A DNA stretch of 64,000 nucleotides, taken from NCBI GenBank assembly GCA_016706425.1, contig JADJJR010000001.1:619133-683132 (forward strand). Reading direction: 5' to 3'. Source of the DNA: Elusimicrobiota bacterium. Its GTDB lineage: Bacteria; Elusimicrobiota; Elusimicrobia; FEN-1173. Below, in pieces: positions 18,199-26,035 of the stretch. The notes beneath the pieces were generated by a model. The model was not told the origin of the DNA. It saw only the letters and a list, made by a program, of their open reading frames with translations, and did not search any database. The position numbers and the translations under genes were made by a program. How positions within the stretch are numbered: position 1 is the stretch's first letter; each line of letters opens with the position of its first letter.

Positions 18199-18226
18199 TT
18201 GACTTTTCCCAACGATTTGATACAAT
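18199..18226 (+). promoter_or_regulatory. Near-consensus sigma70 promoter (TTGACT-N16-TACAAT)
   Basis: TTGACT at 18199-18204, TACAAT at 18221-18226, in an AT-rich intergenic region ~240 bp upstream of the giant ORF. Confidence 0.45.
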
Positions 18227-18265
18227 CAAGAAAGCACACAGTCGTGCGAAAGCAATGACAACGAC

Positions 18266-18303
18266 GTCCCACTCGGCCTCGGGCCCGGTGGGACTTTTTA
18301 TTT
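18266..18303 (+). terminator. Intrinsic terminator-like hairpin (GTCCCAC...GTGGGAC + TTTTTATTT) between the promoter and the giant ORF
   Basis: 7-bp GC-rich stem with 15-nt loop followed by a U-run on the + strand only. Confidence 0.4.
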
Positions 18304-18469
18304 AGGCCGAAAGGCCGGGGGGAGGACGGGAGGCCTCCCCCCACACCCCGCTCCCGCGGATGTCACCGCCGGGGCCGGGCCGCCGCGGCGGCCCAACGAC
18401 GAAGGCGTCTTGCGCGTGAAACCGCGCGGGACGCCTTTTTTGCTTTGTGGGGCAACAAAGGAGACGGAC

Positions 18470-21400
18470 ATGAAGACTTCGCTTGCGCAACGCTGGATCG
18501 CGTCGGTCACCACCGGCGCCTACCTTTTTACCGTGATCGGGGCGGCTCCGGTCGAGGCGTCTTTCTGGGAGGACCGCGCCCGTGCCCGCCGTTCGGACGC
18601 CGCGCCGTCGGGGCCCGGCCCTCTGTTGGCCCAACGGCCCGCCGCGCTTCGCGTTTCCTGGACCCCGGTGGGGTCCGCCGCGCTGTCGGCACCCGTGCCG
18701 CGTCCCGAACCGTCGGTGCCCGGCTGGGCCCGCGCGGCGGTCTCGCGCCACGGCGAGGTCCGAAACCTTTGGGAAGGCCCGGCCCGGGGCCCGCGGGTGT
18801 TCCTCCTGCTGGACGCCCACGACGTCGTTTCCGCCCAGCGCAACATCGCCGGGTTCCTCGCTCAATTCTCGTCCACGGCCCGCCCCGTGATCGGGGTCGA
18901 GGGGACCTCCGGCGCCTTCGCCTTCGACCGATACCGCGACCTCCTTGCCCCGGCGGACCAACGCGCCTTGGCGGAGCATTTGCTTAAAAAAGGCTTTTTG
19001 AACGGCGTCGAGTTGTTCGCCTTGACGGCCGAAACCGCTCCCGCCCTGTGGGGGGTGGAAGACCCGGCGCTCTACGACGCCCACGTGCGCGCCTACCGGG
19101 CGTCTTTGCCGGTGAGCGACAAAACCCGCGCCGCCCTGGCGCGGCTGAAAACCGATTCCCAAGAAGCGGCGGACCGGCTGTTTTCGCCGGAACTCCGCGC
19201 CCTGGACAAGGAAATCGCCGCCCGTCACGAAGACCGGAGCGACGCCGCCCGTTACGCCGCCGTTTTGGCCGAGGCCCTGGGGGACGCGGCGGGCCCGCAG
19301 ACCCGTCGTTTCCTGTCCGCCAAACGCCTGGAGGAGGGATTCGCCTTCCCCGATGTTGAGCAAGCGCGGGCCGCTTTCATCGAGCGGGTCTCCCCGCGCC
19401 TGTCGCCTTTTGAAACCCAACACTTGGTGCGCCTCACGGCGGAGTTCCGGGCGGGGGGCCTCTCGGGCCGCGACTACTACGCCCGCCTGGAGGAAACCGC
19501 CGCTTCCAAGGGCGTGCCCGTTTCGGCGTACCCGCCGTTCCAAAAATACATCCGCTACGTCGCCGCCGCCGAGGCGGTGGATCCGACGGCGCTCCTGGAG
19601 GAGTGGGACGTTTCCGAAGACCGCGCTTACGCCCGACGCTCCCGTCCGTCGGAGCGGCCGTTGATCGAATGGATTCAAGACCTGCGCCTGGCCGAACGCG
19701 CGGTGACCCACGCGCTGACGCCCGTCGAATGGGAGCGGGTCCGCGCGCGCCGCGCGCGGTGGGGGGATTGGGTTGAACGGGCGACCGCGTTGGGGGCGCC
19801 GGTCGACGCCGCGACGGATTTGCGATCGACACTGCCCGTTTTTGAATCCTTTTGCGAGGCGGCCGACGCGCGGAACGCGGCTCTTTTGGACAACGCGCTC
19901 GCCGCGGCCGAACGGCGCGGGGCGCGCGACGTTGTGCTGGTGACCGGGGGGTTTCACGCCCCGGCTTTGCGGCGGTTGTTGGAGGTCAAGGGCCTTTCCC
20001 ACGCCGTCGTGGCCCCCTTCGTCACGGAAGTGCCGGAAGACGGCACCGGGTACCTGCAGGCCTTCGCGTCGACCCGCACGCCTCTTGAACGGCTGTTGTT
20101 GGGCGACCGGCTTTTCATGAACCCCCCTTCGGCCACGTCCGTCGCCGTCCAGGACCCGGCGTCTCCCTTTCACGCCGCCGCCAAGGCCCTGGATCGCGCC
20201 GCGTTGGTTTACAGCGTGCCGTTGGTTCGCGGCGCGGATCTCAACGGTTTCATCGCCAAGGGCGGATGGAAGGCCACCGCGGCGTGGGACGCGACCGGGG
20301 ACCGGCGCACCGTCGAAATTCGCTTCGCCGGTTCCGCCCAGTCGGTGATGGTCGCCTCGCCCCGGGACGGGGCCGCCGCCAGCGGGGAGGGACTCGCCCG
20401 TTCGGTGGAAGAGACCGGCGCGCGGGTCGTGGAGACGGACACCGTCGGCGGCGTTCCCTACGCTCTGGGCGGCAAGACATTGGTCCGGGCGATTCCAGAA
20501 TGGATCGCGGGGGCGGCGTTCTTGATGTGGTGGGGGGCGGCGTCCTTGGCGCCGCCGGCGCTCTTGTGGGGTTTGGGGGCGGGGGCCATCGCCGGCGGCC
20601 TCATGTTGCGGGGCATGATCCTCGGCGCGGCGTTCCTGCACGGGGCCGGACACGCGGCCGCGGCGCGGACCGAAGGAGGAGCTTCCTTCCGCGGTTCCTT
20701 GGCCGCCTACGCGCGGTCCCTGGGCTGGACCGGTCTGGTGCCCTTCGCCCCGGTGTTCCTGCCCGGCCTTTCCCCGGAAAAAGAGGCGCCCAAAATGGAC
20801 ATCGGTCCCATGGCCGACGGTGCGGCGCGCCGGGTGGCCCTGGCCGGGCCCTTGGCCAACCTGACCGCCGTTGGGCTGGTGGCGCCCTTCCTGTCGCTCA
20901 CAGGGACTTTGGGACTGACCGACCTGGTTTTGGCGGCTTTCGCGGGGATCAACCTGTGGACGGCCCTCGCGTCGGTGTCGGATCTCCGCACGGCGCTCTC
21001 CGGCGTGGGCCGCGTGCTGGCCTGCGGGGTGGTGGGCGTGGTGTACGGCGGTCCCAACCCAAAATCCGAAACCCTGCCGGAGGGCGTGCAACGCTTGATG
21101 GATGGGGCCGTCCTGCGCACGCTCCACCGCGGCGGCCAGTCGGGGGGTGTGGCGGCGGTGGCGGTGCGGGAAAACGGCCACGCGGAGTTTTCGTTCTTTG
21201 TTGAAAAAACCGCCAAGGAGCGGGACCGCCGCGCGCGCCTGGGGGCGCTGATGCGCGCGGGCATGGCCCGCCTCGCGGCCCGCGCCCAAAAGGCGGGGTT
21301 CGGCGGCCTGCGGCGCCTGGTGGTGATCGGTCACACGCGCTACGGAACCAACCTGGCCCAGCCCGTGGCCGTCAACGCCCACCCCCACACCAGCGCGGGG

Positions 21401-24400
21401 GAAACCGACACGGTCCTTTACATCGGGGACGGAAAACGCGACGCCAAGTACGAGCGGCCCTGGGAACGGCCCGTCGACGCCCCGACGGTGAAATCCGTCG
21501 CCCTGCCGCGGGGCGTGGCCATCGCCCACAACGGCGACGACAACGCCACGGTCCTGTTCCGCCGGGGCGATCGGAAGGTCGAGCTCTCGAACGAGGACGA
21601 CGCCCGCCTGAGCGAGCGGATGACGGGACACCAAAACCCCGCTCAGGGCGACTCGCCCCAAATCGCCACCCGGTTCGACCGCTGGATCACCCAAGGGTCG
21701 GTGCGCGCGTCCCTGCGGTTGGCCCTGCTGAACACGTCCTTGGAATCCTTGCCCGGGGAGGACCTGTCCGCCGAAGAGGTCCTGGCCCGCGCGCCCACGC
21801 CGGCCACGCTGGACGGGCTGATGCAGGCCAAGACCTTTCAGGGATTTGCCGCCGAGTTGGAGGCGCTCCACCGCCGGCACCCGGCCGCGACGCATGGGGA
21901 GGCGTTGTTCGCCGCCGCCGGCGCCCGGGGGGTGTCGGACGAAGCGGTCTGGGATCTGGAGGACGCCGTGCCGTTCGTCGGAGGATCCGACATCGAAAAA
22001 CTTCGGAACACCCTGGCCGACCAATCGCGGGCGGTGTTTAAAATCTTGCCCTGGTTCGCCGCGCTGGAGGGGGCGGACCAGGCGCGCGCCGCGCGGCGCT
22101 TCGCCGACCTGTATTTAAAATTTTTCTTCACCGGCGATCTCCGTCGGGCGGGCGTCCATCTGTTGCGGCGGGCGGACCCGACGTCCACTTTCGGCGTGAT
22201 GGCGGGCACGCTGTTGGAGGGGGAAAGCGCCGTTTGGTTGCGCCAGCGTCAGCCCTTCTACCTGTGGATGTCGACGGACGGGCTCAGCGTGGCCGGCAGC
22301 AGCGAGGCCAAGGCCTTTTTGGGCGCGCGCGCGGGGGAAAGCCCGTTCCGCCATCGCCTGACGTTGAAGAACGGGGAGGTCGCGACCCTGCGGGGAACCC
22401 GGCTCGTCATCGACCACGTGGAGCGGGGGCGGGTGGCGTCCTACGACCTGTCCCGCCCGGCCGAGGCGTTCGCCGACGCGCGGTGGTTGGATTTGGAAAC
22501 CAGCCCCCACGTCACCGCCTCCACGTCGGAAGCCGTGCCCGCGGAAAAGCGCGTGCGGGACGACACGGAAACCATTCCCTGGGTCAACGCGAAACTGGCC
22601 GAGGATTTCGCCGATCCGAAATCCAACAACAGCCGCTCGGCGGACGCCCTCGTGGGTTTGCTCGCCGACCGGTTGGCCAAACGGAAATCCGCGGGCGGCG
22701 GGATCGACCTGGTGATCGTGGGCACGGAAAAGAGCTTTGACGCGGCCTCGGCCCACGCCCGAATCCTGGAAAAAATATCCAGCCTCGCCGGTCGGCGGCT
22801 CAACGTCCGCGTGGTGTACGGCGCGGAATTCACCCGGGAGGATTTGGTTCAAATGCGGGACGAAGGCTTTGGCGCCGACACGGTCGTCCTGGGCCTGACC
22901 AGTTCGGGCCAGACGGCGAACACCTTTTACGCGCTCGAAGGGCTCCACGCCGCCTGGCGCGGCCTGCGGGAAAAAGCCGGTCTTCCCGACGACGCGACGC
23001 CCCCCCATTTCCTGGTGTCGGCGGACATCGACAACCCCTACACGGAGGAAGTGCTCGGGCAGGGGCTCGGCGCCGGGGATCCCTTCAAAGCCCGGAATTT
23101 CGTGACGTTTCCCGCCCTCGATCCCTTCCACCCGGCGGAGGCGGCGACGGTCACCCACAAGGCCACGGAGCGGCTGCTGAAGGAAGTGTCGGCGCGCTTC
23201 GCGGCGGCGTTGGCCGCCAAGAGCCGGCGTTGGGCCGGCGGGGGCCTGCCGGGACACATCCCGGGGTCCATCCGCCGCATGGTGGACAACGGCGATGAAC
23301 TGGACCGCCGGATCACCGGGTTGGACGCCGACGGCAACCCCCACCGCCACCTGCGGCGCACCGGGGAGACCAACGACATTCCCGACCAGATCGGCGCCGG
23401 GGCCGATCGGCTGAGCCAAGCCTTTTTAGAATCCCTCTGGGCGACGGGCGCCACGGCCCTCTTCATCGCGGTGACCCTGTTGTTCCACGCGACGCCGGCG
23501 AGCGTTCTCCTGAGCGGGTTCCCCAACGGGGCCTACCTGTTCGCCGACGGGGTGCCGCTGTTGGCGGCCGGCGTGGGGCTGTTGACCGTCGCCGTCGCGG
23601 CGTGGAAAACCCGCGCCTGGCGATGGCACGGTTTGTTCGCCGCCTTGGGGGGCGTGGCGGTCTTCGGGGCGGGTCTTTTCGCCGGGGAATCCCTGGTGTT
23701 GGCTCTCGACGCGGCGGGCCGCGCGGCGGGTTGGGGCGCCCTGGGCACGGGGTGGGGCTCCTTGCCCCTGGGTTTGGACGTCTCCCCGGTCAACTTGGTG
23801 AACGCGTTCACCTACATTTTCTTTTTCTTCGGATTCACCCTGGCCTTGAGAAAATACCAGGGACGTCCGTTGTGGGACCGGTTGGGCGGCCGCGTTTTGG
23901 TCTTGGCGGACGCCCAGCATTCCATCGCGCGTTTGAGCGCCGCCCGTTGGCGCCGCATGCTCAGCCACCGGTTCGGCTGGATGGGGCTCAATTCGATCAA
24001 TGAGTCGTCCCTCGGACGGTTGACCCACGAGGAGGCGCTCAATTCCAACGTGCGGGGCAACATTTACCTGCAGGGGGAGGCCCGCCACGCCGAGGGGCCG
24101 ACCCTGATGAATTACAAGCAATTGGGCGGCAGCCCCAACGGACCCGGCCGGGTGTGGCGCATGGGGATCGGGCACAAGCCGCGCGCCCAGGCCAGCGCCG
24201 CCTATTCGGAGGGCTACATCTCCCTCCACATGAAGAGCGACGACGTCGCCGGGTCGGACCCGGACCTGGCGGTGTTGCAGGACCTGGTGCAGGACGGCCC
24301 GGCCCGCGACACCGCGGGAATGGTCCTGTCGTTGGAAGTGGCGGAGCGCATGGCGGGCATTCGCCCCTTGAACTTCGTGGTGGGCATGACCTCCAGCGAA

Positions 24401-26035
24401 GCCAAGACGTCCACCACGCAACAGCCCTTCGCCCCGCTCTCGGAGGGAGAGGTCCGGGCGGTGTTCGGCTTGACCCCGCGCCTGGAGCCCCGGGCGGCGA
24501 CGGCCGAAATCCTTCCCGACCCCCTGCCGGAGGTCGGACCGTCCGTGGGAACGCCCGCGGCGGCCCCGGCGCGCAAGTCGTCCCCGCCGCGCCCGACGGA
24601 CGTGGAAGTCCCCCCGTCGCCTTCAGACACCGCGCCCCGCGTTGCGGGTTGGGTGTGGCGCTGGACGCGGATGGCCGCCCTGGCGCTCGTGGTCGTGATC
24701 CTGTCGTCCAGCGGGGAACGGGTCCTCTCTTCCGCGCGAAACGCCCTGGACCGCCCCGCGCCGGCGGTCGTCGGTTCGTTGGTGGGAGCCGAAACGGTGC
24801 AAAAAAGCGTCCCGGCCGGTGTCCAAAACGTCGCCCCGCCGGTCGTGGTTTTGGAAGCCGCCGTTCCCCTCACGACGCGGGTGTGGTATCACGCGAAGGG
24901 GACGGGCGAACTGAAATTGAAAAAGGGGATGATCCCCGCCGGGACGGCCTTGACAGTGATTCGACGCAATCCGGAGAAAACCCTGGTGCGCGTGCGGGCC
25001 CAAACCCCCGGCGCCCGCGCGGTTTGGGTCCGCGCGGCGGAGTTCGATCGGGGCACCCGGGTTCGCACCGAAGCGGCGCCCGTGACGTCCTTTAACCCCC
25101 CAAACATTCCGCTGTCGCAACAGGCGGTGCCCCTGGACGCCGCCGGCGCCCCGTGGCTGGCGCCCGTGGTGCCCGTCTTGTCGATGGTGGGCCGTCGCCG
25201 CGCGGCCCAGAACAAAACGCCCGGCGCCCTCCTGCGGCGACGGCTCCTGGGCGGCGCGCGCGCCTGGAGCGTCGCCGACCGTCCCTGGGCCGAAGCCCTG
25301 GCGGGGTATTTGGAAAAACCCACCGACACCGACTGGGCCGAGCAGGCCCTGCGGACGGCGCTCGCCTACGGCGCTCTGGGGGGGGCGCGTTGGGGCGCCG
25401 ACCGGGGGTGGCAAAACGACTTCCGGGAAACCCGCTCCATCTTGAAAGGGGCGGCGCTCTCCCCGCGCGAAGGGCGCGCCTTGACGACCTTGGCCCGGCG
25501 CGCCGCGGCCTGGACCCGCGGGGGGTCCCCAACCGCCTTTTCCGACGGGGCCGTCGCGGTCCTGGACTTGACCGAAGCGGAAAAAGAAACCCATCTGTGG
25601 CACCATTGGGCGGCGGCCGCGGAACGAACCGCCCGGGGCGAGCCCGCGCCCGTGTTGGTGGCCCGCTCCGAACGCCAACGGGAACGCCTGGAGGCCGCCT
25701 GGGCGGCCTGGCGCGGCGAGGCGCCCCCCGCCGGGGCGTGGGTGTATTTGGACGTCCTGGACGGTCGGACCGTGACGCGGGGGACCGATGGCTTGCCCGC
25801 GACGGTGCGGCTGGGCGGGGTGCTCAAGGCCGCCGGGGTGAACCCGGACCGGCTGTCCGCGGTGGACGTGGTGTCGGGGGTGGGCGGCGCCCACGCCTGG
25901 GACCGATCCGACCTTCCCGCGAACGTGGTCGTGCGGATGATCATCGGCCTTTTGCGCGAACTGACCCTCACGGCGGTTTTGGACGAGGCGCAAAACGCGT
26001 TGCGCTCGGCCCGCGCGGCCCTGACCGCGGCCTGA
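18470..26035 (+). CDS. Giant (2,521 aa) multidomain membrane protein with embedded GlmS-like class-II glutamine amidotransferase + SIS module
   Basis: ATG 18470 with AAAGGAG SD. Uninterrupted 7.5-kb ORF; the antisense ORF is R/G/P-rich junk. Signal/TM N-terminus. Tiki/TraB-like GxxH-like motifs (FLLLDAHDV, VLVTGGFHAP; tentative). TM blocks. Internal Ntn motif LACGVVGVVYGG and LHRGGQSGGVAAV (GATase-II). SIS-like VLGLTSSGQTANTFYALE. SH3-like C-terminal part. Confidence 0.6.
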   Translation: MKTSLAQRWIASVTTGAYLFTVIGAAPVEASFWEDRARARRSDAAPSGPGPLLAQRPAALRVSWTPVGSAALSAPVPRPEPSVPGWARAAVSRHGEVRNLWEGPARGPRVFLLLDAHDVVSAQRNIAGFLAQFSSTARPVIGVEGTSGAFAFDRYRDLLAPADQRALAEHLLKKGFLNGVELFALTAETAPALWGVEDPALYDAHVRAYRASLPVSDKTRAALARLKTDSQEAADRLFSPELRALDKEIAARHEDRSDAARYAAVLAEALGDAAGPQTRRFLSAKRLEEGFAFPDVEQARAAFIERVSPRLSPFETQHLVRLTAEFRAGGLSGRDYYARLEETAASKGVPVSAYPPFQKYIRYVAAAEAVDPTALLEEWDVSEDRAYARRSRPSERPLIEWIQDLRLAERAVTHALTPVEWERVRARRARWGDWVERATALGAPVDAATDLRSTLPVFESFCEAADARNAALLDNALAAAERRGARDVVLVTGGFHAPALRRLLEVKGLSHAVVAPFVTEVPEDGTGYLQAFASTRTPLERLLLGDRLFMNPPSATSVAVQDPASPFHAAAKALDRAALVYSVPLVRGADLNGFIAKGGWKATAAWDATGDRRTVEIRFAGSAQSVMVASPRDGAAASGEGLARSVEETGARVVETDTVGGVPYALGGKTLVRAIPEWIAGAAFLMWWGAASLAPPALLWGLGAGAIAGGLMLRGMILGAAFLHGAGHAAAARTEGGASFRGSLAAYARSLGWTGLVPFAPVFLPGLSPEKEAPKMDIGPMADGAARRVALAGPLANLTAVGLVAPFLSLTGTLGLTDLVLAAFAGINLWTALASVSDLRTALSGVGRVLACGVVGVVYGGPNPKSETLPEGVQRLMDGAVLRTLHRGGQSGGVAAVAVRENGHAEFSFFVEKTAKERDRRARLGALMRAGMARLAARAQKAGFGGLRRLVVIGHTRYGTNLAQPVAVNAHPHTSAGETDTVLYIGDGKRDAKYERPWERPVDAPTVKSVALPRGVAIAHNGDDNATVLFRRGDRKVELSNEDDARLSERMTGHQNPAQGDSPQIATRFDRWITQGSVRASLRLALLNTSLESLPGEDLSAEEVLARAPTPATLDGLMQAKTFQGFAAELEALHRRHPAATHGEALFAAAGARGVSDEAVWDLEDAVPFVGGSDIEKLRNTLADQSRAVFKILPWFAALEGADQARAARRFADLYLKFFFTGDLRRAGVHLLRRADPTSTFGVMAGTLLEGESAVWLRQRQPFYLWMSTDGLSVAGSSEAKAFLGARAGESPFRHRLTLKNGEVATLRGTRLVIDHVERGRVASYDLSRPAEAFADARWLDLETSPHVTASTSEAVPAEKRVRDDTETIPWVNAKLAEDFADPKSNNSRSADALVGLLADRLAKRKSAGGGIDLVIVGTEKSFDAASAHARILEKISSLAGRRLNVRVVYGAEFTREDLVQMRDEGFGADTVVLGLTSSGQTANTFYALEGLHAAWRGLREKAGLPDDATPPHFLVSADIDNPYTEEVLGQGLGAGDPFKARNFVTFPALDPFHPAEAATVTHKATERLLKEVSARFAAALAAKSRRWAGGGLPGHIPGSIRRMVDNGDELDRRITGLDADGNPHRHLRRTGETNDIPDQIGAGADRLSQAFLESLWATGATALFIAVTLLFHATPASVLLSGFPNGAYLFADGVPLLAAGVGLLTVAVAAWKTRAWRWHGLFAALGGVAVFGAGLFAGESLVLALDAAGRAAGWGALGTGWGSLPLGLDVSPVNLVNAFTYIFFFFGFTLALRKYQGRPLWDRLGGRVLVLADAQHSIARLSAARWRRMLSHRFGWMGLNSINESSLGRLTHEEALNSNVRGNIYLQGEARHAEGPTLMNYKQLGGSPNGPGRVWRMGIGHKPRAQASAAYSEGYISLHMKSDDVAGSDPDLAVLQDLVQDGPARDTAGMVLSLEVAERMAGIRPLNFVVGMTSSEAKTSTTQQPFAPLSEGEVRAVFGLTPRLEPRAATAEILPDPLPEVGPSVGTPAAAPARKSSPPRPTDVEVPPSPSDTAPRVAGWVWRWTRMAALALVVVILSSSGERVLSSARNALDRPAPAVVGSLVGAETVQKSVPAGVQNVAPPVVVLEAAVPLTTRVWYHAKGTGELKLKKGMIPAGTALTVIRRNPEKTLVRVRAQTPGARAVWVRAAEFDRGTRVRTEAAPVTSFNPPNIPLSQQAVPLDAAGAPWLAPVVPVLSMVGRRRAAQNKTPGALLRRRLLGGARAWSVADRPWAEALAGYLEKPTDTDWAEQALRTALAYGALGGARWGADRGWQNDFRETRSILKGAALSPREGRALTTLARRAAAWTRGGSPTAFSDGAVAVLDLTEAEKETHLWHHWAAAAERTARGEPAPVLVARSERQRERLEAAWAAWRGEAPPAGAWVYLDVLDGRTVTRGTDGLPATVRLGGVLKAAGVNPDRLSAVDVVSGVGGAHAWDRSDLPANVVVRMIIGLLRELTLTAVLDEAQNALRSARAALTAA

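Follow-up and report, generated by a model that had tools for sequence, protein, structure and literature searches.

A giant membrane protein gene of Elusimicrobiota with a GlmS-type amidotransferase module, a TIKI/TraB-superfamily-like head and a conserved structured 5′ leader

The chemistry of Ntn amidotransferases demands that their nucleophile is residue 1. In GlmS and GFAT, the catalytic cysteine is located at residue 1-2, and these enzymes contain two SIS subdomains and a C-terminal tail. To our knowledge, the combination of a class-II glutamine amidotransferase (GATase) with SIS is known from GlmS/GFAT only. The glmS class is known to be under RNA control, exerted by the glmS ribozyme and by GlmY/GlmZ. 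The known propeptides of PurF-type amidotransferases (B. subtilis PurF, A. thaliana GPRAT2; MEROPS C44) are short and soluble. Propeptides of class-II GATases are removed autocatalytically (PMC9140057), and in AtGPRAT2 produced in E. coli, Cys87 is exposed once the N-terminal region has been removed (PMC7056826).

Published studies of giant proteins of Omnitrophota took 10 kaa as their lower size limit (10.64898/2026.06.07.730766; West-Roberts et al. 2023, 10.1101/2023.11.21.568195). These giants are membrane-associated and have sugar-metabolism and other enzyme domains strung between transmembrane (TM) helices, as in the protein described here; the text searched does not mention any amidotransferase or GlmS-like module, nor a TIKI-like head common to these proteins. 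Our protein differs from these giants in its length of 2,521 aa, which is below 10 kaa, in carrying one enzyme module, and in having orthologs that are encoded in a housekeeping context.

The gene lies in a 64-kb stretch of DNA (the window), which contains no canonical glmS. It codes for a polytopic membrane protein and is a real gene of the Elusimicrobiota chromosome, passed on by vertical inheritance. An initial annotation had described an uninterrupted ORF that starts at ATG 18470 behind an AAAGGAG Shine-Dalgarno sequence and is not a GC artefact. Both statements are correct: the AAAGGAG is located 6 nt upstream of the ATG, no stop codon occurs until 26033-26035, and the GC content per codon position (0.70/0.54/0.85, with a uniform GC3) is a coding signature that resembles those of the adjacent genes. 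In the ORF listing the frame is open further upstream, to TTG 18410; the orthologs and the database protein begin at ATG 18470. This database protein (P0001, ‘MAG: hypothetical protein IPN23_04360 [Elusimicrobia bacterium]’) differs from the window protein at four residues only. A search for homologues with conserved co-linearity yielded 17 co-linear full-length orthologs with 35-84% identity in independent assemblies of Elusimicrobiota (NCBI, JGI, ENA and Logan), which also settles the annotation's question about a chimeric join or missed stop codons. All regions of the protein are conserved among the orthologs, the GATase, SIS and post-TM2 regions most strongly. The features of the locus are listed in Table 1.

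Table 1. Position of the giant gene, its 5′ leader and the regions of its product in the window.
Feature	Residues	Position (nt)	Strand	Remarks
σ70-like promoter, TTGACT-16-TACAAT, TG-extended -10		18199..18226	+	10/12 consensus positions; 0.2 sites expected in shuffles
Conserved structured 5′ leader		18230..18469	+	present in 9/9 orthologous loci
Leader hairpin P1		18234-18247	+	part of conserved leader
Leader single-stranded UGACAAYG		18256-18263	+	part of conserved leader
Leader terminator-like hairpin T1 and U-tract		hairpin 18266-18294	+	part of conserved leader
Lineage-specific GC-rich insert, ~95 nt		between T1 and T2	+	
Leader terminator-like hairpin T2 and U-tract		hairpin 18401-18438	+	followed by RBS
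CDS of 2,521-aa giant protein	1-2521	18470..26035	+	single open frame; stop codon at 26033-26035
N-terminal leader peptide	1-41	18470..18592	+	basic n-region, hydrophobic residues 10-28, AxA-like VEA/SF (slash, site), then FWEDRARARR
TIKI/TraB/ChaN/Ere-superfamily-like head	~100-560	18767..20149	+	α/β core split by all-helical ~290-aa insert
Mid domain	561-677	20150..20500	+	conserved among orthologs
TM block 1	678-837	20501..20980	+	four clear helices; hydropathy, loop charges
Class-II (Ntn) GATase domain	852-1345	21023..22504	+	starts at Cys852, codon 21023-21025
Helical ~170-aa insert in GATase domain	~1065-1235	21662-22174	+	structure model
Single SIS domain	~1401-1645	22670..23404	+	P-loop T1477-S-S-G-Q-T1482
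TM block 2	1656-1794	23435..23851	+	four helices; hydropathy
Post-TM2 domain	1796-2020	23855..24529	+	conserved as strongly as catalytic domains
Pro/Ser/Ala-rich variable linker, then helix TM3	2021-2066, 2067-2085	24530..24724	+	hydropathy peak for TM3
SH3b-like stretch	~2135-2195	24872..25054	+	predicted outside membrane; SH3_3 in orthologs
Conserved C-terminal domain	2230-2521	25157..26032	+	44-50% identity even in most divergent orthologs

The N-terminal ~560 residues, consisting of the leader peptide and a TIKI/TraB-superfamily hydrolase-like head, are the hallmark of a very large protein family, which is undescribed and has no Pfam model that reaches threshold. At E <= 1e-30, at least 7,078 protein clusters of 600-7,600 aa begin with this head (the largest relative has 7,623 aa), and Omnitrophica, a related phylum, are among the matches. 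In the members checked, the rest of the chain consists of unrelated metabolic enzymes; head-bearing relatives carry one, two or more of them, and the others found include hexokinase, phosphoglucomutase, pyruvate phosphate dikinase (PPDK) and glutamate dehydrogenase (GDH). The head family links the giant multi-enzyme proteins of Elusimicrobiota with those of Omnitrophota. The initial annotation could not have known that the window protein belongs to it, and this membership shifts the point of greatest interest in the protein.

Hydropathy of the leader peptide is maximal at residues 15-21, and an Arg cluster follows immediately after the hydrophobic segment. Of 176 family proteins, 155 contain the motif ‘AAE[AS]NFWxERR’, and the median position of its Trp is 36. 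The motifs LLLDAHD (D115/H117) and TGGFHAP (H496), on which a tentative assignment of the head to the Tiki/TraB/ChaN/erythromycin esterase superfamily had been based, are located in invariant family columns. The candidate catalytic residues are D115, H117, E144, R468 and H496, and an alignment of 24 diverse family sequences shows D115-x-H117, E144, R468 and G493-G-x-H496 to be invariant. Judged from this alignment, the 2His/2acid set and the Arg appear in the canonical TIKI order, matching that of RRSP (E3900-x-H3902, E3930, R4001, H4030; PMC6254334): an acid-x-His on one strand, a Glu on the next, then an Arg and the His of a distal GxxH. The head may share the parallel-β-sheet α/β core of the TIKI superfamily (Tiki, TraB/PrgY/GumN, ChaN, erythromycin esterases, RRSP, HopBA1). 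It differs in the helical insert of ~290 aa that splits this core, in its first acid, which is Asp and not Glu, and in its position at the front of giant multi-enzyme proteins. Motifs and residue order favour the assignment, Foldseek gives it no support, as the head has no significant match in the PDB, and the sole Pfam hit of the whole protein is a sub-threshold one to ChaN (12 bits vs 27.7). The leader motif and the candidate catalytic residues offer a common handle on the family that is open to mutation and testing.

The cargo of the giant protein is a GlmS-type module composed of a class-II GATase, whose glutaminase active site is complete and invariant, and one SIS domain. Cys852 aligns with GlmS Cys1 and, in contrast to the cysteine of GlmS/GFAT, is internal in the translation product. 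It lies 14 residues past a TM helix, and the residue ahead of it is variable among the orthologs (A/F/Y), without a tight recognition motif. In the alignment, GlmS residues C1/R26/G27/R73/T76/H86/N98/G99/D123 correspond to C852/R887/G888/R957/T960/H971/N1021/G1022/D1061. These equivalents are all invariant in 18 orthologs, apart from the nearly invariant T960, so that the active-site residues R26, R73, D123 and the N98-G99 oxyanion hole each have an invariant counterpart. The catalytic residues are kept across orthologs down to ~25-30% identity of the enzyme module, and P0085, a distant member of 4,117 aa, retains the Cys together with the motifs HxR, HNGD and DS. The phosphate loop of the SIS domain is conserved residue for residue, S1479-G-Q-T1482 being invariant among the orthologs.

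The structure model of residues 846-1645, in which the first ~130 residues including Cys852 have a pLDDT below 50, contains one SIS domain. As modelled, the GATase domain has the Ntn α-β-β-α fold with the Cys nucleophile opening the first strand, and residues ~1401-1645 have the α/β fold and the Ser/Thr-rich phosphate-binding loop of SIS. Over its full length, the model matches the structures of GlmS and GFAT best, with both domains in one alignment (393 and 436 residues). The similarity is detected only by NCBIfam GlmS (E 1e-5), by profile searches and by fold comparison. The NCBIfam scores are far under the curated cut-offs (NF001484, 24 bits vs 381; TIGR01135, 21.9 vs 418), Pfam GATase_6/GATase_7 and SIS gave no hit at E <= 1, PDB searches with the single sequences of residues 811-1910 and 1791-2057 found nothing, and a whole-protein profile reached GlmS at no better than E ~0.3. 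HMMs of TM1, GATase, SIS, TM2, the post-TM2 domain and the C-terminus matched no other head-family member except the divergent GlmS-like P0085, and the four loci recovered with the enzyme-module alignment are all from Elusimicrobiota. Compared with GlmS/GFAT, the giant protein adds the helical GATase insert and the flanking 4-TM bundles. No aligned equivalents of GlmS K485, E488, H504 and K603, which belong to the second SIS subdomain and the C-tail, were located in it. Therefore, because of the single SIS domain and the absence of the GlmS isomerase residues, ‘GlmS-like’ is not to be read as ‘a GlmS’. The amidotransferase and SIS assignments of the initial annotation survive in fold and conserved residues but not as Pfam matches, and its GlmS-like module survives in the superposition on GlmS/GFAT but lacks one SIS and the isomerase residues.

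The post-TM2 domain is 73-75% identical in orthologs whose head is 51-57% identical, and it has no similarity in PDB or Pfam, also when a 9-sequence profile is used. Pairs noticed by eye (‘GEARHAEGP’ vs ‘GELKHGP’, ‘EAKTSTTQ’ vs ‘LAKSVTVE’) suggested SIS2. We set aside, as unsupported, the idea that the domain is the SIS2 and C-tail of GlmS: the hhalign probability is 0.1%, PDB and Pfam give no hits, and the GlmS-like motifs seen by eye in residues 1840-2035 are not kept in P0016 or P0017. The SH3-like stretch reported earlier is borne out by orthologs and not by the window sequence itself: SH3_3 scores above the Pfam cut-off at the homologous position of P0017 (39.9 bits) and P0085 (54.4 bits), and at 25.6 bits, under the cut-off of 27, in P0008, whereas Pfam finds no SH3 (PF08239) or other match in the C-terminus of the window protein. 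Residues 2151-2521 are 44% identical to residues 2714-3095 of P0017, and the HMM of the C-terminal domain has a weak match in P0085.

The topology is a prediction made from hydropathy and from counts of charged residues. Hydropathy reproduces the two TM blocks that had been described, and adds a single helix, TM3. TM block 1 contains residues that are invariant among the orthologs (H724-x-x-G-H728, P794/N797, D838), and its HGLGH is retained in P0085. Its HxxxH...D was considered as a site-2-protease-like centre and rejected, since it has no catalytic Glu and matches no model; Pfam has no match in the mid/TM1 region. Outside the orthologs, the mid domain is found in P0038 only. The linker in front of TM3 is 7-41% identical between orthologs. 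K/R residues occur only in loops 660-677, 724-790, 838-870, 1713-1722 and 1795-1830; none are present in the short loops 697-702, 810-816 and 1682-1694. Because loops 1713-1722 and 1795-1830 are rich in K/R, the domains flanking TM2 are predicted to be cytoplasmic. The GlmS-like module and the post-TM2 domain would then face the cytoplasm between two 4-helix bundles, and with TM3 the chain would cross the membrane once more, the SH3b-like region and the tail behind it, which is conserved, being on the outside. The Sec-signal-like N-terminus with its AxA site conflicts with a cytoplasmic head unless the number of TM1 helices is odd.

The region upstream of the giant gene is also conserved, and in every orthologous locus TTGACT-N17-TAxxAT precedes the leader at the same spacing. 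The RNAalifold consensus structure of the leader contains 34 pairs, six of them with compensatory changes; 98% of the cells are paired, as against 39-60% with partners slid. Its covariation score was reached by none of 500 shuffles, and the MFE z-score is -5.85. No Rfam family matches the leader, and a covariance-model search found no further copy. Five matches of a pattern scan of metagenomes were discarded as chance-like, as they lack the promoter/P1 context and have no giant gene downstream. Expression of the giant gene is probably gated by this conserved leader with its two terminator hairpins. The leader RNA is a candidate new cis-regulator in a gene class already under RNA control.

The reading that we prefer, with a probability of about 0.5, is that of a membrane-anchored precursor that is cut before Cys852 and yields a cytoplasm-facing GlmS-type amidotransferase with an SH3b-like tail outside. 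The primary product would be a precursor because an Ntn amidotransferase requires a free Cys α-amino group. The chain would be cut between residues 851 and 852, most probably by itself, by analogy with the propeptide-bearing PurF-type enzymes; a cut made by the TIKI-like head, or by TM1 with its many His residues, would be less probable. The C-terminal fragment would keep its membrane anchorage through TM2 and TM3, hydrolyse glutamine and hand the ammonia to a phosphosugar bound by SIS, with the post-TM2 domain possibly providing the missing half of the acceptor site. The product would be an aminosugar phosphate (GlcN6P-like), made at the membrane and coupled physically to the cell-wall-facing tail. 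If this is true, the first committed hexosamine/cell-wall precursor step, or a related amination, takes place on the membrane and is tied to a wall-binding SH3b tail. In contrast to PurF-type enzymes, the acceptor domain is different, and the part to be removed comprises a folded hydrolase-like domain and four TM helices. We know of no precedent among C44 enzymes for a membrane-embedded ‘propeptide’ of 851 residues, and if the protein is processed, no other precursor of its class would be as extreme.

The best-surviving alternative, which we consider unlikely while taking it seriously, keeps the folds and changes the chemistry: a glutamine-using amidotransferase whose substrate, aminated or simply bound, is not fructose-6-phosphate. 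The post-TM2 domain would take the place of the second SIS subdomain of GlmS, and the product would not be GlcN6P and could be another aminosugar phosphate or a membrane-made envelope precursor. The single SIS domain, the lack of locatable equivalents of E488, H504 and K603, the score of 24 bits against 381, the 170-aa helical insert, and the unique and highly conserved post-TM2 domain all point in this direction. Against it stand the superposition of both domains on GlmS/GFAT, the phosphate loop kept in full, and the fact that the GATase-II and SIS combination is not known outside GlmS/GFAT.

The GlmS-type precursor may also be seen more broadly, as one case of a polyprotein system in which the TIKI-like head marks thousands of membrane-anchored precursors of Elusimicrobiota/Omnitrophota, with a dual-terminator riboregulator on the GlmS-like member; we hold this to be doubtful. 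The conserved N-terminal leader and the peptidase-like head would guide how the downstream enzyme modules are inserted and then matured by proteolysis, and the GlmS-like member would give the system away, since its Ntn Cys is inactive until the chain is cut. Purely as an analogy, such a system could be compared with MARTX toxins, of which RRSP, a TIKI-fold peptidase, is a module, and with viral polyproteins, where a protease-like module and independent modules needing cleavage lie on one chain. The giant protein differs from these by being without cleavage sites, secretion system or toxin context and by its cargo of housekeeping-type metabolism.

The initial annotation had rightly paired autoproteolysis with a non-catalytic role. 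The latter, in which an unprocessed GATase/SIS module is a glutamine/sugar-phosphate sensor or scaffold that regulates the head and the external tail, seems to us quite unlikely. If the chain is never cut, the GATase is unable to hydrolyse glutamine, and the protein would represent a pseudo-enzyme sensor of a new type; the internal Cys, 14 residues past a TM helix, and the unprecedented length of the propeptide are consistent with this. However, pseudoenzymes usually lose catalytic residues, and here the glutaminase residues (Cys, oxyanion N-G, glutamine-binding R/D) are invariant or nearly so, and are found in P0085 as well.

It is improbable that the protein is an exported multi-enzyme protein with a true signal peptide, whose head and much of the chain are periplasmic or outer and which acts on extracellular or host material. 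The signal-peptide-like N-terminus has an AxA site conserved family-wide, and the TIKI-superfamily members Tiki, ChaN and TraB/PrgY are extracytoplasmic. However, glutamine and sugar phosphates are cytoplasmic, as are the ATP, NAD(P)H and PEP needed by hexokinase, GDH and PPDK cargo. The positive-inside pattern places the module in the cytoplasm, the Arg cluster comes right after the hydrophobic segment, and in P0034 no TM helix is predicted between the head and the hexokinase behind it. [quoted passage not shown]

That a chimeric join, missed stops or frameshifts fused ordinary genes, as the state of the adjacent FAD-oxidase gene might suggest, is for practical purposes refuted by the 17 co-linear full-length orthologs from independent assemblies and sources, the uniform GC3, the conservation of every region, and contig L008, where the giant gene is intact although many genes around it are fragmented.

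PADLOC models for anti-phage defence had no match. The FAD-oxidase gene near the giant ORF looks frameshift-split in the window, and indel errors in the assembly are therefore possible. The def-fmt context is common to the window and the P0003 locus. In the loci of P0012, P0009, P0006 and P0013, the giant gene lies upstream of hisG, and in the two longer of these loci hisG is followed by tuf-secE-nusG-rplKA.

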